Source: Trichoplax sp. H2 (Eukaryota). Taken from it: a DNA stretch of 20,000 nt. The number at the start of each line of letters is the position of its first letter. The stretch's first letter is position 1. Positions 3,001 through 19,911 of this stretch are shown one piece after another. Made by a program: the position numbers and the translations under genes. The notes under the pieces are model-generated. The model did not search any database. It had not been told where the DNA came from and worked only from the letters and a program-made list of their open reading frames with translations. Location of the stretch: positions 237,229 to 257,228 of the forward strand of contig NOWV01000106.1 in NCBI GenBank assembly GCA_003344405.1. Reading direction: 5' to 3'.

Positions 3001-6000
3001 GCTAATGGATAAAGTGAAGTAGCTGCAGTACTATCTAATTTAAATTCCTAAGGTATCGGATATCAAAACAACATACTTAGGTAGGTGAACGACCAGCATT
3101 ACCGTTACCATTAACGACGAAAAACATAAATGATATGATAGATATGATTTATAAAACTAACCTCATAGATCAGATGGAGAGAAAATAAAATAGAGGGCAA
3201 ATGCTGATAACCGATCCAGTTCTTATCAGGTCTACGATTCCGATGGATTTGTTAAGTAAGTTTTTTGAAATTTTAAATTTAAAATAGTATTGACATAAAA
3301 ACTTAATTGCCCCTAAATGTCTAAATATATCAGTAACTAACTTGATACACTTTGTTACTATAACGTCAAGCAGATCTTCTTTGGTATATCGAGCATGAAT
3401 TGGTGTTTGGAGGACCGCTGACCATATCTAATAAAGAATTTTTGGATTATAAAACTGCAATCTAATTTCAAAAAGCACCTTAGAAGAAGATGATTTAATT
3501 CAAGTTATCAATATATTAGATAAGAACGACTTACATCAGTTCCAATCCTAGTGCCAGTGCCCTGTAAGGTTGTCATCCAATTCAGGCATGAAATTTATCA
3601 GTTATTCAAAAAAAACCAACGTCGTATTTATGTGAGCATATCAATATACATATGTCAATCGAATCTTAATTAATAGTGTATATTGCGCACTGTACTTACG
3701 CTTACTTCTTCTAGAGAGCCTTTTTCAGATATAAGCCATAATAGAAATCTTACAAATACTTCCAGACTACATTCGATATTGTCATAAGATTTGTTGACAG
3801 ATGCTTTCAAGTACTGAGCTAGTATTGTAAATCCAATTTCTTCCGGTAGTAATTGATGCAAAGCAGCTAAGGACGATTTAACTGCGAGATTTTATCAAAA
3901 ATGTAAAACGATTTTTAATTTGTTGACTACGATCTGCTTCAGATCTCCTGTATTATCGCTACGATATGTACAATAGCACGCTCTCACCGATAACATTCGA
4001 TGGCAGCTTCAATAAAGGTATACGGAACATTTTCCCGTAGTTATTAGTCTATACAAAAGATACAATACATTAGTACTAGATTACACGAACTAAAACTTCG
4101 TACTACCGTATCATAAATTGCATTCATTATTCATACCACTATAAGTGTATCAAACGCCCATTGATATAGGAACTGAATCGATCCTGTACATATTGTTAAA
4201 TCAGTTATTAATTCTAGGAATCAGCAGAATGTAGTATTCGTAATATTTCGTCATACCTGGAATTTTCCAGAGATCGAAGTTCAGCTGACAAATCTAGCGG
4301 AATCGAGTAGTCAATTAGGACAATGTCAGATAAAACTAACTGAACTTGTGAAATCTACCTGTAGAAGGCCGTTATAAAAGTAACCATTTGATGCGTTATC
4401 TAAAACAGCAATTATACCAGTTTCCTATATAAAAATAACGTCGATGGGTTAACTTATACCATCAATACCGTTTAGCTACTGCATTGTGTACATAAAGTGC
4501 AATCTGTAAATCCATACGTAGGCAAGCATTTACCGTCATGCATGCGACATCCTTGCTCTCTATTGTTAGCTTATATTCAAAATTCATATCATGATATTGA
4601 TAAACTCTAGAGAATAGAAAAGGTGGGGTTAAAATTACGAATTGAAACTAACTGATCATTCAATATTTAATGACAGTAATCATTTTAACGTCGCTAATTG
4701 TACCTTAGCTGATCTCCTACAAGACAGTAAAAATATTTTCTCCCGTAGAAATCAGTAGCGAAGAAAGCTTTCTTCGCAACCGAAGCCAAGCAGCTAAAAA
4801 AATTTGATTTCATACAACAACTATATTAATAAGTATTTTTTAAGGCCACTGATAGTATAATGAACTAACAGTTAATTTATTACTAATACATCATTTAATA
4901 CACACATGTCTTCTTCCCATATTTTAGATAAACATATTTCCGATAGTACAGGTTGTAGAGGCTCAGTACTATATATATTTGTTTTGACGAAAGAAAAATC
5001 TCGACCTTGGCGATTTAGTGAAAGTTGAATACTGGACGCGGTTGGCGTTTGGTGTCCGATGGTCGGATGCTGTTGCAAACGGTTTATATCGTCCCTGCCC
5101 TGTAGAGGATGAACTTGTTGAGCAGGCATGTGTGGTATTAGCGTAGAAACTGGCGTGTTTCGATGATGCGAAATTACACTAGAATTGACAGGTGGAGGAG
5201 TATAACTTCGAAAAGGTGATAGGGCTGCGGAATGATGGAGATTCTGCGATTTTGTCGTAAGATTATGCAGTCGCTGATCGGTAAAATTAACGGACGCTAA
5301 TGGGTCTGTGTTGAAGGAATCAGATGTATTCTATACAACAATAACGAAGATAAATATAATTACATACTATATATAAATTTAAAGAAAGGCAGAATTACAC
5401 GCGCTAACCTCAGTTTTTAATTTTCGTGGTTGCCAAAGAGAATGCTTATTTCTATTTTTATCAAAAATAAGAATGAACTCAGGTTCTCTTATGGTGGTGA
5501 CGACTTGATATTCAGGACCATAAAAATATTTTGATTCACCGCCTAAACAATAAGAGAATCATCAATAAATTTAAATTACTTAATTTTTTAGCCAGAAAAA
5601 ATTTATGATATACACTTATACAAAAATATAAAGTTAATACAGGGCATTGTGATAGCTGCAAAAAAGTTAGCTTACTTTCAAGATTGATGAATACCGGATG
5701 AGGTTCGTCGATTGGATTTGAGATCGTGTACAACTCGGGTATTCGTTTACCATGTCTATGATATAGTACAATAGCCAGATGTATTTGCATTATTATAATA
5801 CGGAAAGGTTAAATTGGATAGTGAATAATTTTAGCACTCGAGCTACAGAATGATGTATGGCTAAGACTAAAGATATTGAAATAAACAGTATCTATATTAC
5901 TTTTCATATTCTGATTCTGTAAATCGTCTTTGTATTAAAAGGCCGGTGGATATATTCCAAACGTGTTGTACCTATTTAAGTGTTGAAGATTAATGCTTTA

Positions 6001-7770
6001 AATTGTAAATTGATGTACAGAAACGAATTATAAAATACCAAATTGGACAATTCACAAAGACCTTACGTAAAATAAATACTATCAGCTGCATAAGCTACGA
6101 TAAATCGGTAAAGTTTCTGTCAGTTTTTATAAAGTTCCACAGAGTACTTACCGGAAAAGGCGTTGAGCTGGTAAAGAAAGATCCATCCTCTGCGTAAAAA
6201 CTTATAAAGTTTTGCTCAATAATGCATAACTTTTGATTTTTAGCCCCATGATGACCTAAAGAGAAGTCATTCAATAATCGTTTTAGCTATACAGTTCATC
6301 AAGTATGATCGCAGTTAAGATAGAAATTTTTCATTTAACTGCAATATATAACGTTTATAGTGATAAAGTACAGCTATTCGTACGTTTTGTATTTGTGTCT
6401 TCTGAAAAGGTACACCAAAGCACCTATTGAATATAAAATAGTCAAAGTATCAAATGTAATAAATTTAGCATACTTAAAGATATCGTCTTACTGACGTCGA
6501 TTATTGGCGTTTCCACGGTAAAAGTTTTGACGATTTTGTTCGTATCGCCTATGCCACTAAAGCTTAGGACAACAGTCTTATCGCATACATAGATCTAATA
6601 CAAGTATATAATAAATTTCGTGACCACATTGCAATATATTTGCTGAAGAGCTTTAATTTGGTAAGATCACACTGGGATGACCTAATAAATTTTCTTCTTG
6701 ATTTAGCATCATAGCATTTTATTTTAACTACTATTATATGCAGCTTTAATATTTGCATAATTCTTTCTTTTAATATTGCTTCTAAATACATGCGTGTCTG
6801 TAATATGTGCGTACATGATGATATTTTTAACATTACAAACGCTATTCTCATAAACATATTCATTAAATTAATAAGATTAGATTATATCGATGACGTACTT
6901 CCTTCTCTGTAGCTACATTCCCTTCATCTTGGTCGTCTGCGTAATATGTAACTTTCCAAAAATCCTAAATGAGCGTTGTATATTGATAAATTGACTTTAC
7001 TGTATATATATATATAATATTAGACTATGGAACTATCATAAAAAAAATTATCATGGTTTATGGTAGCCAATGAATCTATTTCCATAGCTAAGATCGAAAA
7101 CGAATAACTTGTAAATTCCGATTAACAGTAGATTTTATGGATATTTTGATGGGTTAAAATGACCTTCACTGCTTGTGACTGGTTCAGTTGAAATTTGTGC
7201 ACATTTACTTGAATAGTACTGTAACGTACACGAATGTGGTTTGAATTATAATAACTCAGATTGATCGTTTGCAAATAATGGGTTAGAAACTCTGAGATTC
7301 TAGATAGAGCTATAGGGTTCAATTATATTATTGGGTATAAAAGTCATTCGCCGTACGCATGCTGTGCCCATAAAATTTATTATACGAGTATGAAACTATA
7401 GTACGCAAATATTTTACTAATCTGCAAACTTTTACAGAAAGATGAAAGATTTTTTCAGCACTGTACAGTATTACATTCAAGTCTTTCGATAGCTATATTC
7501 ATTACTTTCTGGACAGTGTCCGAATATTGCAAAAGTACATATCAATATTGAATCAGTATACTACAAGAACAAATGCAGATGCAAACATACACGTACATTA
7601 TCTTATGCAAGTGATGAATGATATGTTAAAAATAGTATCTATCTACACTATATATACGTCATATTTATTTTGGTAGAAACCTTCTGTTCTTGGTAACCGT
7701 TTTCATCATTTTTACCAAGCGGATGTCGATCTCGATAGTAAATCTTTCCATTTGGTATAAAGTCTTCCAT
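1..7770 (-). CDS. ANAPC1: Anaphase-promoting complex subunit 1 (APC1), multi-exon, 3' part outside the window
   Basis: Manually spliced, phase-consistent GT-AG exons (minus strand, 5'->3'): 7770-7681, 6964-6899, 6594-6496, 6423-6384, 6255-6152, 5971-5901, 5755-5676, 5542-5409, 5330-4906, 4793-4704, 4606-4534, 4424-4359, 4293-4257, 4183-4137, 4048-3988, 3881-3706, 3561-3535, 3427-3342, 3231-3162, 3047-2977, 2893-2805, 2701-2613, 2523-2464, 2392-2320, 2247-2202, 2118-2072, 1995-1802, 1661-1605, 1474-1368, 1249-1172, 1076-987, 901-793, 642-502, 442-393, 310-126, 33-1. Peptides match APC1 as recalled from the human protein: QRTMALPVGRGM, LNLTGRIPP, WPLFHNGVAAG, IDSTWIVYNKP, EHAGFLMALGLSGHL, SIGLLLG..AAK.GTMD, HIRALLPPTSAEL, EIGRGPGPEM, and N-terminal DFIPNG..HP and KTFTVETP. 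The start is uncertain: either ATG at 7770 or an acceptor at 7794 with an unseen upstream exon. Boundaries in poorly conserved regions are less certain. Confidence 0.95.
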
Positions 7771-8254
7771 CCTCGTTAATTCAAGCACAAAGGTCTATTT
7801 GTAATGGGGTATTTCTCTGTTCGAGATTTAAGAAAGTAGACAACAGAAAATAGCTTATTAGTGGATTAGCATTAGCGCAATGTCAATATGCTATAAATGA
7901 AATCTTGCAGATAGAGCTTGCAGTATAATAGGAAAATAGGAAGTCTAACCAGAGCATAGAGTACCATTACTGTATCTATCAGTATACAATACTGTAGATA
8001 GTATAGTACAAGTCACTGCTGGTATTTTTTCTACTGTGCAAAAATCTAGGCAATCATGGATGGTATAACAAACTTCTTGGAGATTCAGAACAATGATATG
8101 TAAATGGATAGTCAAACATGAGACACCTCCATCTTTTAACTTTACGTATTTTTATGTGGTAATATTTTATAGTCCATCGTTGGGAGTTGGGATCAACTTA
8201 TGAATAAATTGGGAAATTATCTCCTACATATTGACTACTATACAAGTTTGACAC

Positions 8255-8272: not shown

Positions 8273-9194
8273 TTGTGTTTATAAACTCTATAAAGATGTC
8301 TTTCTAGCTAGTAAAAAGACATTAGCAGATATCTAGTAGGAGCATTGAAGATGTAGTACAATTACAGGTTGATCGAGTTCAAGTGAAAATTTCGATTGGT
8401 ACATGATACTAAAAGATTGAAAGTGCCCATTTATGTATGATTCTAAGAAGGAAAGGTAAAGATCTTATTGAGTAGTCATTAATAATAATATATTGTAGAG
8501 TACTACTACTGTAGATTGGCATCTATCTGTAAGATAAGCAAAAACACTTTCTGCAATGATTAACTTGGTGGTGCTCTATCCAGATAGCTCAAAAACACAA
8601 ATATGATTTCAAAGTGGTAATATTAATCTACAACTGGGTAAAAACAGTAGAAATAGCCAAGACATACTCTAGATAATACAGAAATAACAGTCATTTATTT
8701 ATTGTAATCATGGACTATCTTAAGTTACATTGAATTTTAGTCAATAATCTGCACAGTCGCACAACTCTACTTTCTACTGCTTGTAGGTAAAACGTTGCCA
8801 ATTTGCATCACAAGAAATCAACTCATTGGATAGTTAATATACGTACCACGCAGCTAGTCCCAATTTTTCCGAAGTAGTTACGGGTTGCCTTTTAATTGAA
8901 TTTTATGTTCTATGGCAAGGGATTCAATTTGCATGCATACCAAGAGCAATGTTATAACCTGGAAAATGGATCGATTTGGAAGGCGAGAAAATCAATCTCC
9001 ATTCACAGCTCATTGCTCGATCTACAGTAAAGGATGACACTGTATTCTCTACCGTACTATACCGTAACGGTTGGGGGGTACTGTACCGTCAGTACAGTAT
9101 AGTGCACTGTTTCAGTGAGGAGTCTACAGCTAGTACAATAGTACACCAGTCAGATAATTTGATTTTCGCGCCAGATGCAACCTTTCAGTGTGTA

Positions 9195-9435
9195 CAGTAC
9201 TCTCTTACGATGTATGTACTGTGAAGTAGTACTGTACACTGTACTGTCCACTGCCAACAGGTACAGTACAGTACAGTACAGTACTGTACTGCATTGTACT
9301 GTACTGTACTGTACTGTACTAGCATGGACCTCTACAGTACAGTACTGTACTGTACAGTACTGTACACTACTGTACTGTAGGTCTACAGTACTGTAGCATG
9401 GGCCAAAGGCCGTATCGGTACTGTACTGGTACCGT
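9195..9435. repeat. Low-complexity pentamer array of (CAGTA)n and its reverse complement (TACTG)n
   Basis: For example gtacagtacagtacagtacagtactgtactgcattgtactgtactgtactgtactgtact at 9261-9320. Orientation switches several times at palindromic cagtactg/tgtaca junctions. Degenerate units extend back to ~9040. Confidence 0.9.
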
Positions 9436-9498
9436 AAATACGATACAATTTAACCTTCAGGGTTAAAGCGGAACCTGTACTGGCAACGATGAGCAACG

Positions 9499-9983
9499 AT
9501 GAGCTCTAATGTTAATAGCCCAAAACCCAAGATGTCATTTTTCAGGTAAGCAAAGACATATTATTCTACCTCTGGCATACTGGTCTTGTCGAACAGAAGT
9601 ACAAATTTCATTAAAAACTGCTACAAACAAGCACTACTTTCATTGTGTCTTGTGTTAGCCTGAAGCAATGTCTGTATTGTATACATTATATATGGATATA
9701 CGAGTATGCGGGTATACAAAGTACCAGTATGGACTCCTACTATAAGAGCACGAGCATCGGCCATTGCAGTCTATAGCTAAGATGAAATGAAGCATTTAGG
9801 CAGATATTTAGCCATAGTTAGCTAGATACCATATGATTACAAAATAGGATACTCAAGCTTGATTGTGATAGTAGACACATACATCAAACTTGTAGAAAGG
9901 ATGAAAAGGAACCTGTTGGCAAAGTAGGCTGTTTTGAGATATCAAGGATGCGAGCCATTCTCTTGACAAATTCATTTGCAGAA
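9499..9983 (+). other. Possible first two exons of an unidentified or decayed gene
   Basis: ATG at 9499 gives MSSNVNSPKPKMSFF ending in a consensus donor CAG|GTAAGC at 9545/9546. A phase-compatible open block at 9896-9983 (KDEKEPVGKVGCFEISRMRAILLTNSFAE) follows a TAG acceptor. No family recognised and no convincing third exon. Confidence 0.3.
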
Positions 9984-10449
9984 GTACAGTGTTAATTAAT
10001 TGTAACTAGCATACAACCCACTCTCTATAATAATTAGAAAGTAGTAAAATGACAAATCTATGACTGGTGAAATGATTGCATTTAAAAAATATGTACACAA
10101 CTTGAATAATACAATTAGTCGGGTAACAGGATACTTCATGCAGTGATCGTCAATTTGTTATGATGGAATGATCTAGGCCTTGCAGTCGTCATCAAATCTT
10201 TCCCATCCTCTGTGGGTGTAAAGGCTTTATTTACACCTAATAGTAGGGATAAGCGTGGTAGTAACTCGTTCTACACATATTTATTTTCGTAAAATTTTGT
10301 TAATATTATACTGTACCAATAAATTTCCTGTTCAGAATTTTGCTCGTTGCACGCCCAATACCGCATCGAAAGTGATGACTATCATCATTTCGATGAAATT
10401 ATTTACTGTACTTTGGCATCTCGCTGATTCATTCCTATGACAATAATTA

Positions 10450-11700
10450 ATGGAAATTGACAATTTATAATTCGAAAAGTCATCGTTTCTTTTCGGACTG
10501 TATAATTTAATGTGCGTTAAATTATTTACAATCAGTAACCAAGATCTGAAGCTTTATAGTCATAGTAAACTTACTATTGATATACGAGTATTAGGGACTG
10601 CTAGAGGTTGCTCGAGTATATTGCCTCTTAATGATATGGTATTTATTGACTTTTAATACGCATTGGAAGATTAATTTAAAAATTTCTTAAACAGATATAT
10701 AGGGTTGGGTATCGTTCTTTCCTCAGCCGTATTATTCTTACTTGTCAATACCGGAAGTATCGTCAATAAGCCAAAAAATTCGATTAAATCTACAGTAAGA
10801 AATTTATTGCTCTTTCCCCACTAAACGTAAATTGCTTTAAATTACTGAAGATGTAGAGATGAAAGCCATTAGTTAAAACCTAATTAAAATATTTTAAGTG
10901 ATAATATCCACAATCGTGCTGCAGTGTTAATGTATCAAGTGCTTAATTATGCTAACTATTTAGTCAGTTTTACTTTCAGCTTTATAGTTATTCATTTCTT
11001 TCTTTCTTAAAAGCGAAATACTTCAAGATGGGATGAATAAATCATTGGATCCTTCCTTCCTTTCAATATTTTAAATGGAATCACTTAAGCTTTCTTCTCC
11101 GTATTGTTTGAAAAAGTGTGATACAGAAAATGAATTCAATCTATAATTTATCTGCTCTCACTTTTACGATATGAAAGCTATTAGAGTAATGCATTTATCT
11201 TTGATGTTATCCGCTATCTATCTCTAATGTCTTTTTATTCCCACTAATTTATAATTACATCGCTGAAGGCTAAATGTTGTAAATACTTATTGTATTGTGT
11301 CTTCAATAAAATGTGATAACAGCCCCGCAACTAGTGTTCCACATTCTATTCGATTTGACCATTTTGACCTAAATTCGATTCAATTCAAAATTTGTGCAAG
11401 TAAAATTCGGTTTATTTTTACGTGAATATACAATAAATAGTCATTTGAAATTGTATATTTGTAAATTTATTGGCGTATACCATTATAATATTAGCTCTAT
11501 AGAGAGAAAATAAAGAATTTCATATCAAGCAACTAGTAAATAGACATCATTTATGACAGATGTTAAAACGTTCATTTGCAAAATAGCCAATGTGCCGTGT
11601 TTGGTAAATGCCCGTGTATATCAAAACGCTATTAGGACCATTATAATTTATAATTGCAATATAGAATTAATAACAAAGGTCAAAGATACAAATACAGGAT
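10450..11700 (+). repeat. Diverged direct duplicate of 17865-18975 (copy 1; pseudogene-like)
   Basis: Colinear matching blocks, e.g. aaatacttcaagatgggatgaataaatcattggatcc (11016) vs aaatacttcaagacggaatggataaatcgttggattc (18341); gaaattgtatatttgtaaatttattggc in both; gagagaaaataaagaatttcatatca in both. End points are approximate. Confidence 0.9.
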
Positions 11701-11744
11701 AATATGTTTAAATCTTGTTATGTAACAGCGATAAATACTACGAT

Positions 11745-12015
11745 ATATTTAAATCTTGCTACAATTCTGACATCTTAGTATGTTTCAGTCTTAGCATAAT
11801 TCATAATGCACGTTTTATTTGCAATCTTAGCTTAACTCTTATACTCTATGATGTGTTGCAATCTTAATACTCTATGATAAGTTGAAATCTTTGTGGAGTT
11901 CTAATACTGAGTGATATATTTTGTAATCATTGCGCAACTCAAATTTGTCGCAATCTTAGGGTACCGTACCCTGACACTCTGATATGCAGCACTATTAGTG
12001 CAACTCTGATGTATT
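11745..12015. repeat. Degenerate minisatellite (recurring gcaatctta / actct(at)gat motifs)
   Basis: A ~26-nt tandem pair atactctatgatgtgttgcaatctta / atactctatgataagttgaaatctt at 11841-11891, plus further gcaatcttag copies at 11821 and 11950. Confidence 0.55.
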
Positions 12016-12020
12016 ACTAT

Positions 12021-12731
12021 GATTTAGTGCCAATACATTTTATTTTAACTACTATTACATGCAGCTTTATTATCTGTGTCTTTCTTTTCAATGTTGATTC
12101 CATAACGTGCCTATCCGTGACGTGCACACAAAATTATAAAATTCTTAATATTAAGAGTAGGATTCTCATCAACATATTCATCAATAACATTAGGTCATAT
12201 CGATCGCGTATTTCCTTCCCTATAGCTATATTTCCTTTATCTTGGTCGTTTACGTAATATACCCTTAGCTTTCAAAAAAATCCTAATATATTGTACATTT
12301 ATAAATTTAGTATCTTAATATATGAAAAATTCACTTTATTGCATAAAATAGGTTCGTCTTATAACTACCAAGAAATATCTGGCTACAATCAGATTATCTA
12401 AGTTACTACAGCAAAATTCATCATTGATATATGTTACAATCAGCTATAGAATTTTTTTAGCAACACAATGAATTTATTGTCATAGTTAAGATCGAAATAA
12501 ATAACTTATAAATTTTGATGAATTGTAGATTTACGTATATTTTGATAGATTAAAACGGTCATTAATGTTTATGAGTGGCTTAGTAGATACAACAAGAGTA
12601 TCATTAATTGAGGTTGGTGTACATTTACTAGAATAGTATTGTATGTGTATGTGGTTTGAATTATGATAACTCAGATTAATTGTTTGCCAATAATGGGGTA
12701 GAAATTTACGATTCTAGATAGAACTATAGGG
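12021..12731 (-). pseudogene. Decayed direct copy of APC1 5' region 6700-7317 (exon 2 plus flanking intron DNA)
   Basis: Shared blocks: cattttattttaactactatta..tgcagcttta, attctcat.aacatattcat, atcttggtcgt, atgtggtttgaattat.ataactcagatt, gattctagataga.ctataggg. The exon-2 equivalent (12282-12212) is 71 nt rather than 66, reads DFFES*, and its donor GT has become AT. Confidence 0.88.
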
Positions 12732-13432
12732 TAATAATAGCCTCTGTGACAGATTTATTGCATTACATCTATCTAAATGTGTCATATATGATATGTACAA
12801 GTATGCAATCAACGCTTGTAACACTTCTATGTAGATCTTTGCATCGTTCTTAAAAATGATTGCTATATGATGAATGCAAATTATTGTAATCAGTAGCTTT
12901 CACTTTACAAATAAGAATTACTATTTCAAGTCAACAATATCTTTAATTAATTAAGCATGTACAATATTCTGCACTATATCAACTACGCACAATTTTATTA
13001 TAGCCAGTTAGAGGTACAACTACAGCTCATCTTAACACAATCTGACTACATTTTACAGTTAATTTCTCATAAAAAGATTTTTTAATTAATAAATTAACCC
13101 AACTTCCAAATAATAATAAACAACAAAGCAACTTAAAAACACGTTTGAGAATATGTTAATTAAACATAATGATTGAGCCCAAATATTATTGCAACAGTTA
13201 CCATGTTCATAATATCAAATTAATTAATAAGCTATATGATTATCGTCGCTCAGTAGTAATATAATTTAGACATATACAAGTACTAGAATGCGTATATTAG
13301 GACCGATTGATATCACAAGAACAGGGACTAATTGAAGTTTTTAAAGTTTAGTTATAAATTTGGATATTATTGCTATTAATCTCAGATAAATTTATCGCCC
13401 AGATTTCTACAAAGCAGAAAGACAGTAACAAC

Positions 13433-13660
13433 ATACTGCATGGTCCTAGTGCAAAAACAAGATTTCATTAATATTTACATAGCGCTAATAAGTTATTTTC
13501 CTTCGTCTTGTTTCTAAAATTTTTAACAGGAGGAATACTCTAGCTCTACCTTAAAGAATCGATTGTTGCACCTAAATTAACGAGGATGGAAGGCTTTATA
13601 CTGAATGAAAAGATTTACTTTCGAGGTCAACATCCCTTTGGTAATGCGGTGAAACTGTTC
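13433..13660 (+). pseudogene. Inverted copy of APC1 first coding exon plus upstream sequence (~7925-7695)
   Basis: aattaacgaggatggaaggctttatactgaatgaaaagatttactttcgaggtcaacatccctttggtaa aligns to the reverse complement of ~7711-7781. It gives LTRMEGFILNEKIYFRGQHPFG versus APC1 LTRMEDFIPNGKIYYRDRHPLG. The upstream motifs atactgca, caagatttcatt, gcgctaat and ctaataag.tattttc are also shared. Confidence 0.88.
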
Positions 13661-14363
13661 AACAATGTCCAATAAATTATGTAGCGCTACAGGCTGCACC
13701 TTATTATTAAGAGATAAATTTCTGGACGATAAACTCCCAATAAATAGCCCTCGATGAATCTTATCTTCTGTATAACGAATTACAATTGGAAATTTAGCAA
13801 TAGTATATACTGTACATATAATTATAAGATACAATAGATGCAATTAACAAACGAATTATGTATGACAATGAATAATGCATACATATTTTAGGGGTTAGTA
13901 TGTTTATTTAGGACTAAATCGTTTGAAACAATTCATGATTTAAACAGTCGGACATCCTCTTAATCCCTTTGGGTGAATTACATGTCTATGAGTATTTAGA
14001 AAAGAAATAGACTAGAGCCGAATCTAGAGTTAGAGTTGCTACGACATGTGCCATATATCCATGAGAATTAAACGCTTGCTCGAACTGGGAGCTAATTATA
14101 CAGTGCACGATACGTAGTTGTCAATCATTAGGAGTTCTCGGCTTATCAAATGTCAATCATTTATTGACGCCTTTATGATCAACTCTAAGAAGCAATTAAG
14201 TATGATTATTAAGCTAATTGAGTCTAAACTGTTATCTATTAAACACGATTGTACACTGTTTCAGTTAAAAGTCCATTAATAGAGAGATTGGTACTTATAT
14301 TGGAAAAATCGAAGAAGTTTATTTAAGGGTTAACCGATAAGAACTCGTTAAGATTGGATCAAG

Positions 14364-14744
14364 ATGAGTAGAATGGCTCATATTTTGATTAAAGATCTCA
14401 CCATGCAGGCCTTTATTGGTATTCGCGAAGAGGAATTTCGCAATCCTCAAACTGTTGTATTATCCCTAAAAATATTTACAGATATTAATTTAGCACGGCA
14501 AAAGGATGATATTCACTATACTCTGAACTATGTCAAGGTGATTGAGGAAATTAGATTAATAGTTAAAAGACAACACCATAAATTATTGGAATATCTTGGG
14601 GGTGATATTATCTCTCATCTCTTTGCTTCGTTTGATGCAATCCAACATATTGAGCTAAAAGTAATAAAACCGAAGGTTGTTCCCGATACAAAAGAAGTCG
14701 GTGTTTTAATCAGTCAAGATCGAAGCTCATATGAAGCGCAGTGA
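14364..14744 (+). CDS. folB: Dihydroneopterin aldolase / dihydroneopterin-triphosphate epimerase family protein (FolB/FolX, T-fold), intronless, 126 aa
   Basis: Motifs IKDL....FIGIREEE..NPQ, DDI..TLNY, KLLE and IKP..VP....VGV.I match the FolB/FolX family. E24, Y56, E76 and K102 correspond to the conserved DHNA active-site Glu/Tyr/Glu/Lys. Length is typical of the stand-alone bacterial enzyme. FolB versus FolX is not resolved, and the true start may be Met4 (14373). Confidence 0.9.
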   Translation: MSRMAHILIKDLTMQAFIGIREEEFRNPQTVVLSLKIFTDINLARQKDDIHYTLNYVKVIEEIRLIVKRQHHKLLEYLGGDIISHLFASFDAIQHIELKVIKPKVVPDTKEVGVLISQDRSSYEAQ

Positions 14745-15457
14745 AATTTTATCACGAAAATCATAATGGTCAAATAAGATCAAGTGCAATGCAGAATCTA
14801 TTATTTGCTCGATTTTAAGAAGTTTTGGAATAATTTTTTGCTATTTAGCATTGAACCTCGTTTTCAAGTTAACATTAGAAATTAGAACAAAGGTAAATTA
14901 AAGACAGAAGTTATACCTCCTGTCATACGTAGAAAATAGCAAAACAAAGCTAGATATTGTAACATAATATACAATCACATTCTGTTTAGCACTGTGTTAC
15001 GGTGTTGCCTTGTCATTAGGATAGTTTAATAAGTACAGTAGTAGCTAGGATGGAGAATATCCATATTTGTAGTGCTAGGTAGATAAGTAATGCCTTAACG
15101 TGGATGTTGGTTGTAATAGTTCATTACATACTTGATATTGATTGTTATTGTGTGATAGATAGCAGTAAGATGATTTAAGTTCTTGTTGATGATAGTTGAA
15201 TTAGACAACCTACGAGCTTAGATTAAGATTAAGTATGAGTAAGAGATTCAAAGTATTTACTGATAGAAAAGCTATGTAAGGAACATCTCAGTTCGAGATG
15301 TTTCTCCTAGTAAGGTATAATAATAATACTGTTGTTGTTTAAAAATTAGACGGTTCCTATATAAACGGGAAAATTGAGTTGAGTGGTGTGGTAAGAAGTT
15401 GTAGATGTATCTTTGCTAACAAAAGTTTCATCTTTACAGTCCTTTGCTTCGTGTGTT

Positions 15458-16106
15458 TAACGTTAAGTAAGAGGGCGTTTAAGTCAGTAGCTACTTATAG
15501 ACTTTTACTGTACGTTACCTTGTCGCAGAAGTGAAATTGTGACACAATAATACCATATTAACTGTAAGTAAGTTATGTGATAGATATACTATGCCAGCTA
15601 GCCAATCACTATGTAGCATAGGCAACTATAAAAGAAGACTATCTAGCGAATATTAGTTAGTTATTACGCATTACACATGAATACGGGCGAGTTCGGCTAA
15701 TAAATACTTTATATTTGTATCTGTTGACTCCTTTTCCTGCCTTTAATTTACAAAGCAAGGGAATATCATTACAGATATCGAAGAAAATCAAATTATACTG
15801 TATTTTTTAAGACGGAACGAGATAAGAAAGATGGAAAAGCTGGAACATTCCGGATGGTTAAACCATCGACAAGTGTAGGTGTGGTACGGTTTGGTGAGCC
15901 TTTGAGCTAAATGTGGTCCTTGCAAGAGCAGTTCGATCGAGACAATGTAATATAATCGATTTCCGAATGTGCTGCACACTACATATACATTACACACGAT
16001 ATCTATAAATCAATGTAATTTGCGAGGCTAATTATAATGCTATCTGTTGTGTATTTTCGTGGGGAACAGGTTCGAACTCAAAGAAATACACGTGCTTCTT
16101 TTTCTA
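15458..16106 (+). repeat. Near-identical duplicate, copy A, ending exactly at the assembly gap
   Basis: Starts taacgttaagtaa and ends cacgtgcttcttttttcta; it is repeated at 16127-16848 with scattered SNPs and small indels. Confidence 0.95.
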
Positions 16107-16126
16107 NNNNNNNNNNNNNNNNNNNN
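16107..16126. other. Assembly gap (20 N)
   Basis: Run of n characters. Confidence 1.
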
Positions 16127-16848
16127 TAACGTTAAGTAAAAGGGCGTTTAAGTCAGTAGCTACTTATAGACTTTTACTGTACGTTACCTTGTCGCAGAAG
16201 TGAAATTGTGACACAATGATACCATATTAACTGTAAGTAAGTTATGTGATAGATATATTATACCAGCTAGCCAATCACTATGTAGCATAGGCAACTATAA
16301 AAGAAGACTGTCTAGCGAATATTAGTTATTACGCATTACACATGAATACGGGCGAGTTCGGCTAATAAATACTTTATATTTGTATCTATTGACTCCTTTT
16401 CCTGCCTTTAATTTACAAAGCCAGGGAATATCATTACAGATATCGAAGAAAATCAAATTATACTGTATTTTTAAGACGGAACGAGATAAGAAAGATGGAA
16501 AAGCTGGAATATTCCGGATGGTTACGATATCTACAATTCCGTGTTATATATATTAATAAAGTTTTTTCTTTGAGATCGTTGCATTGGGAAGTGATACCTT
16601 AACCAAACCATCGACAGGTGTAGGTGTGGTACGGTTTGGTGAGCCTTTGAGCTAAATATGGTCCTTGCAAGAACAGTTCGATCGAGACAATGTATAATCG
16701 ATTGCCGAATGTGCTGCACACTACATATACATTACACACGATATCTATAAATCAATGTAATTTACGAGGCTAATTATAATGCTATCTGTTGTGTATTTTC
16801 GTGGGGAACAGGTTCGAACTCAAAGAAATACACGTGCTTCTTTTTCTA
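16127..16848 (+). repeat. Near-identical duplicate, copy B, starting exactly at the gap; carries an extra ~81 bp (16525-16605)
   Basis: Same sequence as 15458-16106 except for SNPs, small indels and the extra segment between ggatggtta and aaccatcgac. Confidence 0.95.
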
Positions 16849-17864: not shown

Positions 17865-18975
17865 AACATCAACAATTTGCAATCCAATCAGCAATTGTTT
17901 CTTTTCAAAGAATAATCTGATGTACGATAAATGAATTATTTACAGTCAGAAACTAAGATTTGAAACTTCATAGTCGCAGTAAAGTTGTGTCTCGTATTAT
18001 TGGTTAATTGCCATGCAATGAAATGATCTATTGACTCTATGCTTTGTAAGCTAATTTAACAGTTTATTAAAGATAAATATGTGGAATTGGATATCGCACT
18101 TTTCCCAGTCTTTATTATTGCTTATCAGCACCGAAAGCACCGTCAGTAAACCAAAATATAAATAAATAATGCTATTATTTAAAATCTAGCTAAAATAAAT
18201 TATATGATGTGATAAAATTTGCAATCATGCTGTAGTGCTGTAGTTCCAGATACTTAAATTTTTATTGAATTATCATTGCTAATTAATCGAAGTTATTTTT
18301 TAGCTTTATACTGTAGTCATAAATATGTTTCTTAGTAGCAAAATACTTCAAGACGGAATGGATAAATCGTTGGATTCTTCCTTCCTTTCTTTCAATAATT
18401 ATAATAAAATGAATAACGTAGGCTTTCTTCTCCGTATACAGTAGTTTGGAAAAGTGTGATACAGAAAAATGAATTTAATCTATAATTTATCTGCTCTCAT
18501 TCTTACAGTATAAAAATTATTAGAGTAATGCATTTATCTTCGATGTTATCCACTAACTACGAGTATCTCCGATATCTTCGTATGTGCAGCTAATTTACAA
18601 TTACTTCCTTGGCAAGGTAAACGTTGTAAATACTTATCGTATTGTGTCTCCAATAAAAGTAATGACAGTAATCCTAACCCTAATGACACCTTATTTTTAC
18701 GCGAGTGTATAATAAATAGCCATTGAAATTGTATATTTGTAAATTTATTGGCCTATACCTCTATAACATTAGCTCTATGGAGAGAAAATAAAGAATTTCA
18801 TATCAGGCAACTAGTAAATAGGCATCGTTTACGACAAAAGGCAAAACGTTCATTTCCAAAATGGCCAACGTGCCATGTTTGGTAAATGCCCGTATACGTC
18901 AAAATGCTATTAGGATCATTATTATATATAATTGCAATATAGAATTAACAAAGGTTACAGATACCAATACAGTAT
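17865..18975 (+). repeat. Diverged direct duplicate of 10450-11700 (copy 2); contains exon-like blocks of an unidentified + strand gene or pseudogene
   Basis: Colinear similarity to copy 1. Exon-like blocks 18509-18579 (IKIIRVMHLSSMLSTNYEYLRYL, donor GTATGT) and 18773-18885 (LWRENKEFHIRQLVNRHRLRQKAKRSFPKWPTCHVW*) are phase-compatible and open. A complete gene model could not be built. Confidence 0.85.
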
Positions 18976-19316
18976 AAAGTATGTATCATTTAAAGGATTA
19001 TAGTTACAAATATAAACTAAATAAACTGCGTATCTAGTCGGGAGCTGATGCATACAGTCGGTTTAAGAGAAATTACGTAGATATTACAGAAATTAATTCT
19101 AAGGAGATTTAAGATATTACATCATTATTACCTGGAGCAACACTAAAATACAAATTCATAATTACTTTTTATTTAACATTTTACCAGTAATATTTCCTAC
19201 TATGAATAGGATACGATATGATGTCTGATAGCGGTACTAATAATTAATATAATAATATTAGTGATATATTTAGAAGAAGCGATTATACAAGCATCATAAG
19301 CATACAAATGCATTGA

Positions 19317-19911
19317 TTAGACATCTACAACCATCTTCTTGTGAATATCTGTTGAGGCTACGACCTAAGACAATATCGAACAAATGAATAACAGAAGTCA
19401 GTACAAAATGTTTATTATTAAAATAGAAATGCACCTTTCAAATCAGACTTATAACCAAAATATTACAATTAATCATGGAAGTGACAAAATTTTTACTAAC
19501 TTTGCAAAATTCATCGAACGATATTTTTCCATCTCCATCCGTGTCGGCATAGATAATAGTTTTGTCAACAATTTGTTGTAACTGTGTATCTTTGAGGTTG
19601 CTACCAACCATCATTTTTAGTACACGAAATAATTCAGTATTCGTTATGTAGCCATCTTTATCCATATCATATATTCTAAAGGCAACTATATTGTATGGCA
19701 AATTAGTATCATTTTGAATCAAACTCGCTATCTCAAGTTAACAATGGGAGTGCATTACTTTAATGTAATCGTAAAATATCTTAAGAATCAATAATAAATC
19801 GTAAACGCTGATATACGAGTATATTAAGAATGCCAAATATACAGTACTTACACTTCAATTTTGATTCCCTGTCGCCTTTAACGCTAAAGAGTGAGACGCC
19901 GTGGATAAATT
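19317..19911 (-). CDS. PPP3R1: Calcineurin subunit B (protein phosphatase 3 regulatory subunit), last three exons; 5' part outside the window
   Basis: Exons 19911-19852 ([20 protein letters not shown]), 19685-19501 ([62 protein letters not shown]) and 19364-19317 ([15 protein letters not shown]). GT-AG and phase-consistent, with EF-hands 3 and 4 and the animal-type C-terminus [10 protein letters not shown]. Confidence 0.97.

Follow-up and report, generated by a model that had tools for sequence, protein, structure and literature searches.

How does an animal come to carry a gene for dihydroneopterin aldolase, and what would it do with the enzyme? Animals are, to our knowledge, textbook folate auxotrophs without this activity, and a stand-alone FolB protein in an early-branching animal poses the puzzle of a role without the downstream enzymes HPPK and DHPS. 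The question is raised by a 20,000-nucleotide stretch of the genome of Trichoplax sp. H2 (contig NOWV01000106.1, positions 237,229 to 257,228 of the forward strand), hereafter called the window, in which a single-exon open reading frame (ORF) of the FolB family occupies positions 14364 to 14744 on the plus strand. Our data confirmed that this ORF is part of the placozoan nuclear genome. With regard to its nature, we favor, at somewhat better than an even chance, the reading that it is a real placozoan nuclear gene for an aldolase- or epimerase-type pterin enzyme of bacterial origin.

The gene itself has been seen before. When 5.8 billion proteins were searched with a word index, a single match appeared, TRIADDRAFT_52657 of Trichoplax adhaerens (99% identity over 123 amino acids), which carries the UniRef label dihydroneopterin aldolase and is otherwise named an uncharacterized protein. 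The two are the same gene: the window copy has isoleucine rather than valine at position 18, a conservative change and the only one, and its ORF is able to start three codons earlier. The available part of Maguire et al. 2014 (PMC4224340) lists the Trichoplax gene as a "putative folB" and treats its provenance as questionable; the gene aligned poorly and was dropped from the trees. The locus tag TRIADDRAFT_52657 was not found in the literature that we searched. Because of this annotation and the 2014 mention, most of the novelty is gone.

The FolB-family gene and its place in the placozoan genome

The ORF runs from an ATG to a TGA stop codon (14742 to 14744) and encodes 126 amino acids, with an alternative in-frame ATG at 14373 that is the start of the public 123-residue model. 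Its product matches the Pfam FolB profile PF02152 at 93.2 bits (cut-off, 31.8; E = 1.9e-26), covering model positions 1 to 112 of 113, and the NCBIfam domain profile TIGR00526 (folB_dom) at 93.1 bits (cut-off, 45.05), and it passes the cut-off of the folB equivalog TIGR00525 (77.3 bits versus 72.15). As the family match is unbroken and full length, the ORF is free of introns. It carries one FolB domain, which is neither in tandem nor fused to HPPK-DHPS. When the product was aligned with 26 of its best relatives, G19, E24, Y56, and E76 proved invariant, and D48, L74, and K102 were conserved in at least 90% of the rows. Four of these residues, E24, Y56, E76, and K102, share columns with E21, Y53, E73, and K98 of Escherichia coli FolB (K-12 record), which we take to be its catalytic residues; the titles of PDB entries among the structure matches name Tyr53Phe and Lys98Ala variants. 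The intact, intronless frame of 126 residues and the aldolase active-site residues that had been read from the DNA alone in a preliminary description are thereby borne out. Judged by its sequence, the ORF is a genuine stand-alone FolB-family gene with a full domain, and it looks functional.

Modeling is in line with this assignment. An AlphaFold2 model built from the 27-row alignment has a mean predicted local distance difference test score (pLDDT) of 94.8, and when the model was compared with the PDB by Foldseek, 37 matches reached E ≤ 0.001, dihydroneopterin aldolases leading the list. The leading folds (3o1k, 5f3m, 7su7, and 6ojo) superimpose with template modeling (TM) scores of 0.86 to 0.88 and root mean square deviations (rmsd) of 1.0 to 1.2. 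The ESM Atlas entry for the product has a pLDDT of 0.90, and its closest clusters are bacterial FolB. We are confident that the modeled protein would adopt the T-fold, with a four-stranded sheet and two helices, and it may assemble like its relatives, whose active sites form between the subunits of a homo-octamer or tetramer.

The gene lies on the same gap-free stretch as the host gene APC1, as the preliminary description had held. The sole run of N in the window is at 16107 to 16126, and exons matching human APC1 at the protein level (human residues about 943 to 1278) are found on the minus strand between 115 and 2008. Positions 115 to 321 match human residues 1216 to 1278 (E = 4e-18), positions 475 to 651 match residues 1152 to 1199 (E = 1e-15), and positions 1745 to 2008 match weakly; the C-terminal part of APC1 falls past the left end of the window. 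In addition, TRIADDRAFT_52657 is encoded on a host contig of 13,260,704 bases. Positions 13000 to 16000 are wholly or partly contained in 20 of the 24 public sequencing runs listed, which come from seven studies, and 14 of these 20 contain at least half of the sampled words. Run X21, which has another organism label, contains almost none of the sampled words, a result that says nothing on absence from that organism.

For two DNA-type runs (X1 and X2, labeled as two different organisms) and two RNA runs (X19 and X20), contigs were compared with positions 9000 to 16100. Single contigs bridge the ORF and both of its flanks, from 12309 to 15023 in X1 and from 11388 to 15023 in X2. The word depth of the bridging contigs is 26.4 in X1 and 93.6 in X2, against 30.7 and 100.4 in the adjoining contigs. 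The depth over the gene is thus that of its surroundings. Taken together, the gene is physically part of the placozoan nuclear genome.

It also has the composition of its host. The GC content of the ORF is 0.349, compared with 0.326 and 0.323 in the flanks, and the GC content at its third codon positions (GC3) is 0.291, within the range of three APC1 exons (0.24 to 0.39). When the FolB profile was run over six-frame fragments of the window, the ORF alone matched. An HPPK profile made from 11 FolB-HPPK fusion proteins found no folK remnant, with 0 matches at E ≤ 10 in 1,115 six-frame fragments of the 20-kb window. The host-like, AT-rich composition and the absence of operon neighbors such as folK, both noted at the outset, hold within these limits. 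The further remark that the gene stays intact while everything around it is decayed does not apply, as no other bacterial sequence surrounds it; since there is no decayed bacterial DNA near the gene, the contrast on which the remark relied is void.

Origin of the gene

When searched with HMMER, 1.84 billion cluster representatives gave 2,726 matches at E ≤ 0.001 and 68 at E ≤ 1e-10; the one match at E ≤ 1e-30 was the placozoan protein itself. The best match from outside the placozoans, P0002, shares 39% identity with it (E = 1.8e-19). Among the 120 listed of 553 profile matches, 10 bear the name of an organism, of which the tenth is Trichoplax and the other nine are prokaryotes (Neptuniibacter, Lacimicrobium, Halioglobus, Competibacterales, Woesearchaeota, Nanoarchaeota, Planctomycetes, Armatimonadota, and Vicinamibacteria). 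The longer proteins include seven distant FolB-HPPK fusions. The only organism named among 30 matches that were looked up is the fungus Jimgerdemannia flammicorona, the source of P0123, a FolB-FolB-HPPK fragment of FOL1; the fungal FOL1 FolB domain stands among the 150 best matches (55.4 bits, 27% identity).

Relatives of P0002 with 77 to 83% identity occur in four records of metagenome-assembled genomes (MAGs), two of which are labeled Leptospiraceae (one on a 179-kb contig), one Sericytochromatia, and one Woesearchaeota. The Leptospiraceae-labeled contigs are gene dense and of bacterial type, and three of the four loci have a common gene order. Another relative, P0045, comes from a Spirochaetota MAG. 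Near-identical loci of the P0002 type thus stand under three phylum labels, which suggests that errors in MAG binning are behind the differing labels. At these loci, folB starts 3 nucleotides behind a gene for a short-chain dehydrogenase/reductase (SDR), with chorismate synthase and an S41 peptidase encoded upstream; the SDR-folB pairs lie at 4240 to 5357 in L005, 4240 to 5357 in L006, and 4240 to 5352 in L008. The L008 copy of folB loses its reading frame after 89 codons. Searches for related loci gave nothing with the query alone in genome contigs and viral contigs, nothing with P0011, and nothing with P0002 in metagenome contigs.

An endosymbiont source, which the preliminary description had entertained, found no backing in this sample, in which the nearest lineage sits in Leptospiraceae-labeled MAGs and no nearest sequence is labeled Rickettsiales or Margulisbacteria. 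In a term search of two placozoan-symbiont papers (PMC6784892; 10.1101/2025.02.27.640636), riboflavin was the one proposed vitamin that turned up, and no passage on folate or pterins was found.

Three trees were computed from subsets that we chose ourselves among the best matches, the named matches, and reference sequences, with 189 and then 42 rows left out. An IQ-TREE quick tree of 88 rows, and this tree only, placed the query weakly with P0002 and P0039 (Shimodaira-Hasegawa approximate likelihood ratio test, 84). The end branch of the query (0.63 to 0.77, against medians of 0.54 to 0.92) is not unusually long. Using the approximately unbiased (AU) test on 46 rows, a clade of the query and both fungal FOL1 FolB domains, a grouping named after the 88-row quick tree had been viewed, was rejected (delta lnL, 37.3; P = 0.0023). 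To judge from these comparisons, the protein resembles stand-alone prokaryotic FolB and FolX, not the one fungal type available. The description of the gene as a transferred one of bacterial type therefore stands in part: it is stand-alone, its named relatives are prokaryotic, and the fungal FOL1 clade is rejected, but no donor clade is supported, and the nesting within bacterial FolB or FolX that had been expected received no statistical support in any of the three trees, at identities of at most 39%.

Several findings weigh against a bacterial source. Identity to sequences outside the placozoans does not exceed 39%, and the close matches are mostly metagenome proteins without an assigned domain of life. 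The fungal FOL1 domain scores, at 55 bits, at least as high as most bacterial matches and higher than E. coli FolB (28 bits in the PDB search). A FastTree analysis of 277 rows, comprising all FolB domains fetched, contained no supported set with the query, and the careful tree of 46 rows left it on a polytomy with no supported sister. In addition, the eukaryotes in the trees amount to one fungal FOL1, with no holozoan, plant, Nematostella, or Branchiostoma sequence.

The absence of these sequences from the trees is what leaves room for vertical inheritance. In this scenario, the gene is a divergent remnant of an ancestral opisthokont folB(-folB-folK-folP) whose other domains were lost and which disappeared from most animals. 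Maguire et al. 2014, in the part available (PMC4224340), inferred that the ancestor of opisthokonts had a fusion gene containing folB, which was followed by many fissions and domain losses, and the rank of the fungal FolB domain among the best matches, the lack of a supported bacterial sister, and the entirely host-like composition would all agree with such a descent. The AU rejection of the query with the first and second fungal domains argues against it, as do the absence of introns from a gene within an intron-rich genome, the single domain in place of the tandem opisthokont form, and the fact that the best matches are stand-alone proteins from bacterial contigs. We therefore consider vertical inheritance unlikely. 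The preferred reading, horizontal transfer from bacteria, is plausible but unproven. Under it, placozoans would have obtained the gene long ago from some prokaryotic lineage, and the gene would have acquired the composition of its host since; an old transfer would be consistent with the host-like GC3 and with the lack of any HPPK remnant in the window. The gene was not found among the 12 transfer candidates of Driscoll et al. 2013 in the main text of that paper, taken without its supplements (PMC3641634).

Predicted activity, transcription, and constraint

If the gene is functional, its product would act on 7,8-dihydroneopterin or its phosphate, supplied by the animal's own GTP cyclohydrolase I, of which the T. 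adhaerens sequence is aligned in the available part of PMC4423366. The enzyme would cleave this substrate to 6-hydroxymethyl-7,8-dihydropterin and glycolaldehyde and/or epimerize it. Since no host HPPK or DHPS is reported, the product would not enter a complete folate pathway of the host but may be used in pterin metabolism or by a partner organism. In the available part of Maguire et al. 2014 (PMC4224340), none of the Metazoa sampled has a complete pterin branch; no passage on biopterin was found in the accessible part of a placozoan nitric oxide synthase paper.

Which of the two reactions would prevail depends on where the protein falls between FolB and FolX. Profiles and the structure model favor the aldolase type, while the ranking of PDB sequences, the higher identity to FolX, and the SDR neighbor in bacteria would favor an epimerase role. 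An alternative that overlaps with the preferred reading, having the same gene and the same origin, is thus a FolX-type dihydroneopterin-triphosphate 2'-epimerase that feeds a monapterin-type cofactor. The best match in the PDB sequence search is Pseudomonas aeruginosa FolX (4aey; E = 1.4e-11), with E. coli FolX in third place, and identity to the E. coli proteins is 31% for FolX and 25% for FolB. The SDR encoded directly upstream of the nearest bacterial folB has pteridine reductase, dihydromonapterin reductase, and PRK09134 as its best NCBIfam matches, all below cut-off. An epimerase would also suit a host without HPPK and DHPS to take up an aldolase product, as reported in the part of Maguire et al. 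2014 that we had (PMC4224340), and the AU test on the 46 rows did not reject a clade of the query and E. coli FolX (delta lnL, 16.3; P = 0.073), the one FolX sequence in the tree, which sits on a long branch.

Against an epimerase, the product scores well below the cut-off of the FolX equivalog NF008418 (61.5 bits versus 152), in contrast to the folB equivalog, which it passes. Aldolases lead the Foldseek matches, and the FolX structure 1b9l appears only at rank 13. The trees computed without constraint keep the query and FolX apart. Finally, two spirochaete-type genomes, the nearest bacterial ones, have one FolB match and one HPPK match each, as would be seen with a FolB of the folate pathway. 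On balance, a FolX-type enzyme appears improbable to us, and we continue to favor an enzyme of the aldolase type within the broader aldolase/epimerase reading.

Going further, we can speculate that the host FolB is one half of a pterin or folate pathway split with intracellular bacteria. GTP cyclohydrolase I and FolB would make 6-hydroxymethyl-dihydropterin or epimerized neopterin, and either a symbiont lacking folB would complete folate or the animal would reduce the product to a non-biopterin cofactor for hydroxylases and nitric oxide synthases. The idea rests on two facts, that the gene is intact and that no host HPPK or DHPS is reported, and we regard it as decidedly improbable.

A remaining concern is that the ORF is intact by chance, being a transferred or relic frame that has no present function. 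Evidence on transcription and constraint bears directly on this scenario. Contigs of both RNA libraries lie over the gene region, at 14415 to 14741 in X19 and at 14778 to 15034 in X20, the latter fitting as 14778 to 14869 and 14840 to 15034. These contigs are compatible with transcription of the gene, and positions 14745 to 15034 on the plus strand are a probable 3' untranslated region, assigned from the X20 contigs alone, which show neither strand nor ends. Both RNA runs have zero cover at 9000 to 10895 and 13266 to 14213, which the DNA-type runs cover, and the uncovered piece from 13266 to 14213 says nothing firm on where a transcript starts. Expression, put forward in the preliminary description as a check, is thus seen as RNA contigs over the ORF and its 3' flank, albeit at low depth and without strand.

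Two observations on these contigs stand apart. The X19 contig (record 11) fits as far as 14741, immediately ahead of the TGA, and then has 10 unmatched letters, and the X20 contig (record 27) has 25 unmatched letters before its fit begins at 14778, with no joint listed; the misfit between 14741 and 14778 could be a skipped piece of 36 nucleotides, which would remove the stop codon, or noise at the contig ends. Furthermore, both RNA runs cover positions 11122 to 11330 and 12574 to 13263, noncoding-looking patches between APC1 and folB that could represent untranslated exons or low-copy repeats that are transcribed.

With respect to constraint, the window and the X2 contig differ at 23 positions in 3,636 nucleotides, and none of the differences falls within 13826 to 14986, an interval that comprises the ORF with 538 nucleotides upstream and 242 downstream. 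In simulations, a longest spacing of 1,162 nucleotides or more between differences had a P value of 0.003, and zero differences inside the ORF alone a P value of 0.078, which is not significant. We take the interval as a hint of constraint and not as a measure of selection. The purifying selection suggested in the preliminary description is therefore hinted at by the interval but not carried by the ORF alone.

That the ORF should be intact by chance would accord with the lack of a partner enzyme in the host (PMC4224340, available part), the shortness of the frame (381 nucleotides), the P value for the ORF by itself, and the low RNA cover. Against this stand the catalytic residues, all four of them, and the entire predicted fold, kept at identities of at most 39% and after full compositional amelioration, the conservative isoleucine/valine exchange as the sole change from the T. 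adhaerens reference protein, the 1,162-nucleotide interval, and the RNA contigs over the gene. Chance preservation consequently seems very unlikely. Still, a functional nuclear gene has points to its disadvantage as well: the RNA contigs have a depth of 3.8 to 5.4, come from two runs of one study, and give no strand and no ends; the comparison on constraint is confined to the genus Trichoplax; and the physiological role is a guess, downstream enzymes lacking in the host.

Lastly, bacterial DNA that reached the host scaffold as contamination or in a chimeric join, a concern because Trichoplax assemblies are known not to be free of bacterial DNA (Driscoll et al. 2013, PMC3641634, available part), is practically excluded by the independent X1 and X2 contigs, which span the ORF together with AT-rich host DNA on either side at the depth of single-copy sequence, the presence of the stretch in runs of seven studies, the 13.26-Mb contig that encodes the reference protein, the lack of a bacterial neighbor gene in the window, and the lack of a near-identical bacterial protein among the 1.84 billion representatives.

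Surroundings of the locus and comparison with known systems

Host duplications had been described on both sides of the gene, and those upstream were confirmed. Diverged low-copy copies at single-copy depth lie between 12020 and 13644, where positions 12020 to 12704 (direct) and 13557 to 13644 (inverted) are 73 to 83% copies of 6699 to 7289 and 7712 to 7799, respectively. The downstream side is different, consisting of apparent assembly redundancy and a dispersed repeat. Positions 15458 to 16106 recur at 97 to 100% identity as 16127 to 16848, on the other side of the 20-N gap, and the duplication spanning 15458 to 16848 is probably redundancy of the assembly. Directly 3' of the gene, positions 14995 to 15544 (about 550 nucleotides) form a high-copy dispersed repeat, with word depths of 4,000 to 28,000 compared with about 26 to 100 in the flanks and many loose contig ends at 14995 and 15544. 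In both DNA-type runs, this repeat reaches about 150 to 300 times single-copy depth, and it is seen in RNA-library contigs too. Scanned against Rfam and for tRNAs, the window gave 0 matches in either case, so the repeat is not a recognizable tRNA-derived element.

Elsewhere in the window, a GTACT pentanucleotide microsatellite of about 27 copies occupies 9261 to 9395, raises the local GC content to 0.44, and breaks the Logan contigs. By eye, positions 11267 to 11700 resemble 18550 to 18980 in translated ORFs. Past the N gap, an open frame on the minus strand (19438 to 19737) resembles an EF-hand calcium-binding, calcineurin-B-like exon, again by eye.

The enzyme family is known, and so is the kind of event. 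The gene is a further candidate for an old transfer from a prokaryote to an animal, and what is added here is of modest value, namely, that the gene is host borne and appears intact in its catalytic residues, that it differs from the fungal FOL1 type, and that its nearest sampled lineage can be named.

Among known systems, the bacterial stand-alone FolB proteins (3o1k of Vibrio cholerae, 2o90 of E. coli, and the TIGR00525 family) come closest, having the same length, the T-fold (TM score, 0.88; rmsd, about 1.1), the same E/Y/E/K residues, and the same stand-alone form. Unlike them, the placozoan gene is nuclear, encodes a protein with 25 to 39% identity to its relatives, belongs to a host without reported HPPK or DHPS, and received no supported position among the bacteria in our trees. 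FolX (4aey, 1b9l, and NF008418) has the fold and the catalytic residues in common with the placozoan protein; the latter keeps the K-P motif of FolB, while E. coli FolX has K-L. The fungal FOL1 of J. flammicorona (FolB-FolB-HPPK-DHPS; P0123 and P0277) offers opisthokont FolB domains that reach 55 bits with the query, but these are fused and in tandem, in contrast to the placozoan ORF, and a joint clade is rejected (AU test, P = 0.0023).

Within animals, the available part of Maguire et al. 2014 (PMC4224340) reports folB-type genes in just three of them. The other two are Branchiostoma floridae, with a bacterial-type folB-folK that was likely transferred, and Nematostella, with a putative folB-folK. 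As in Trichoplax, these are bacterial-type genes of the pterin branch in animals that lack folP. The placozoan gene is folB alone, whereas the Branchiostoma and Nematostella forms carry an HPPK domain.

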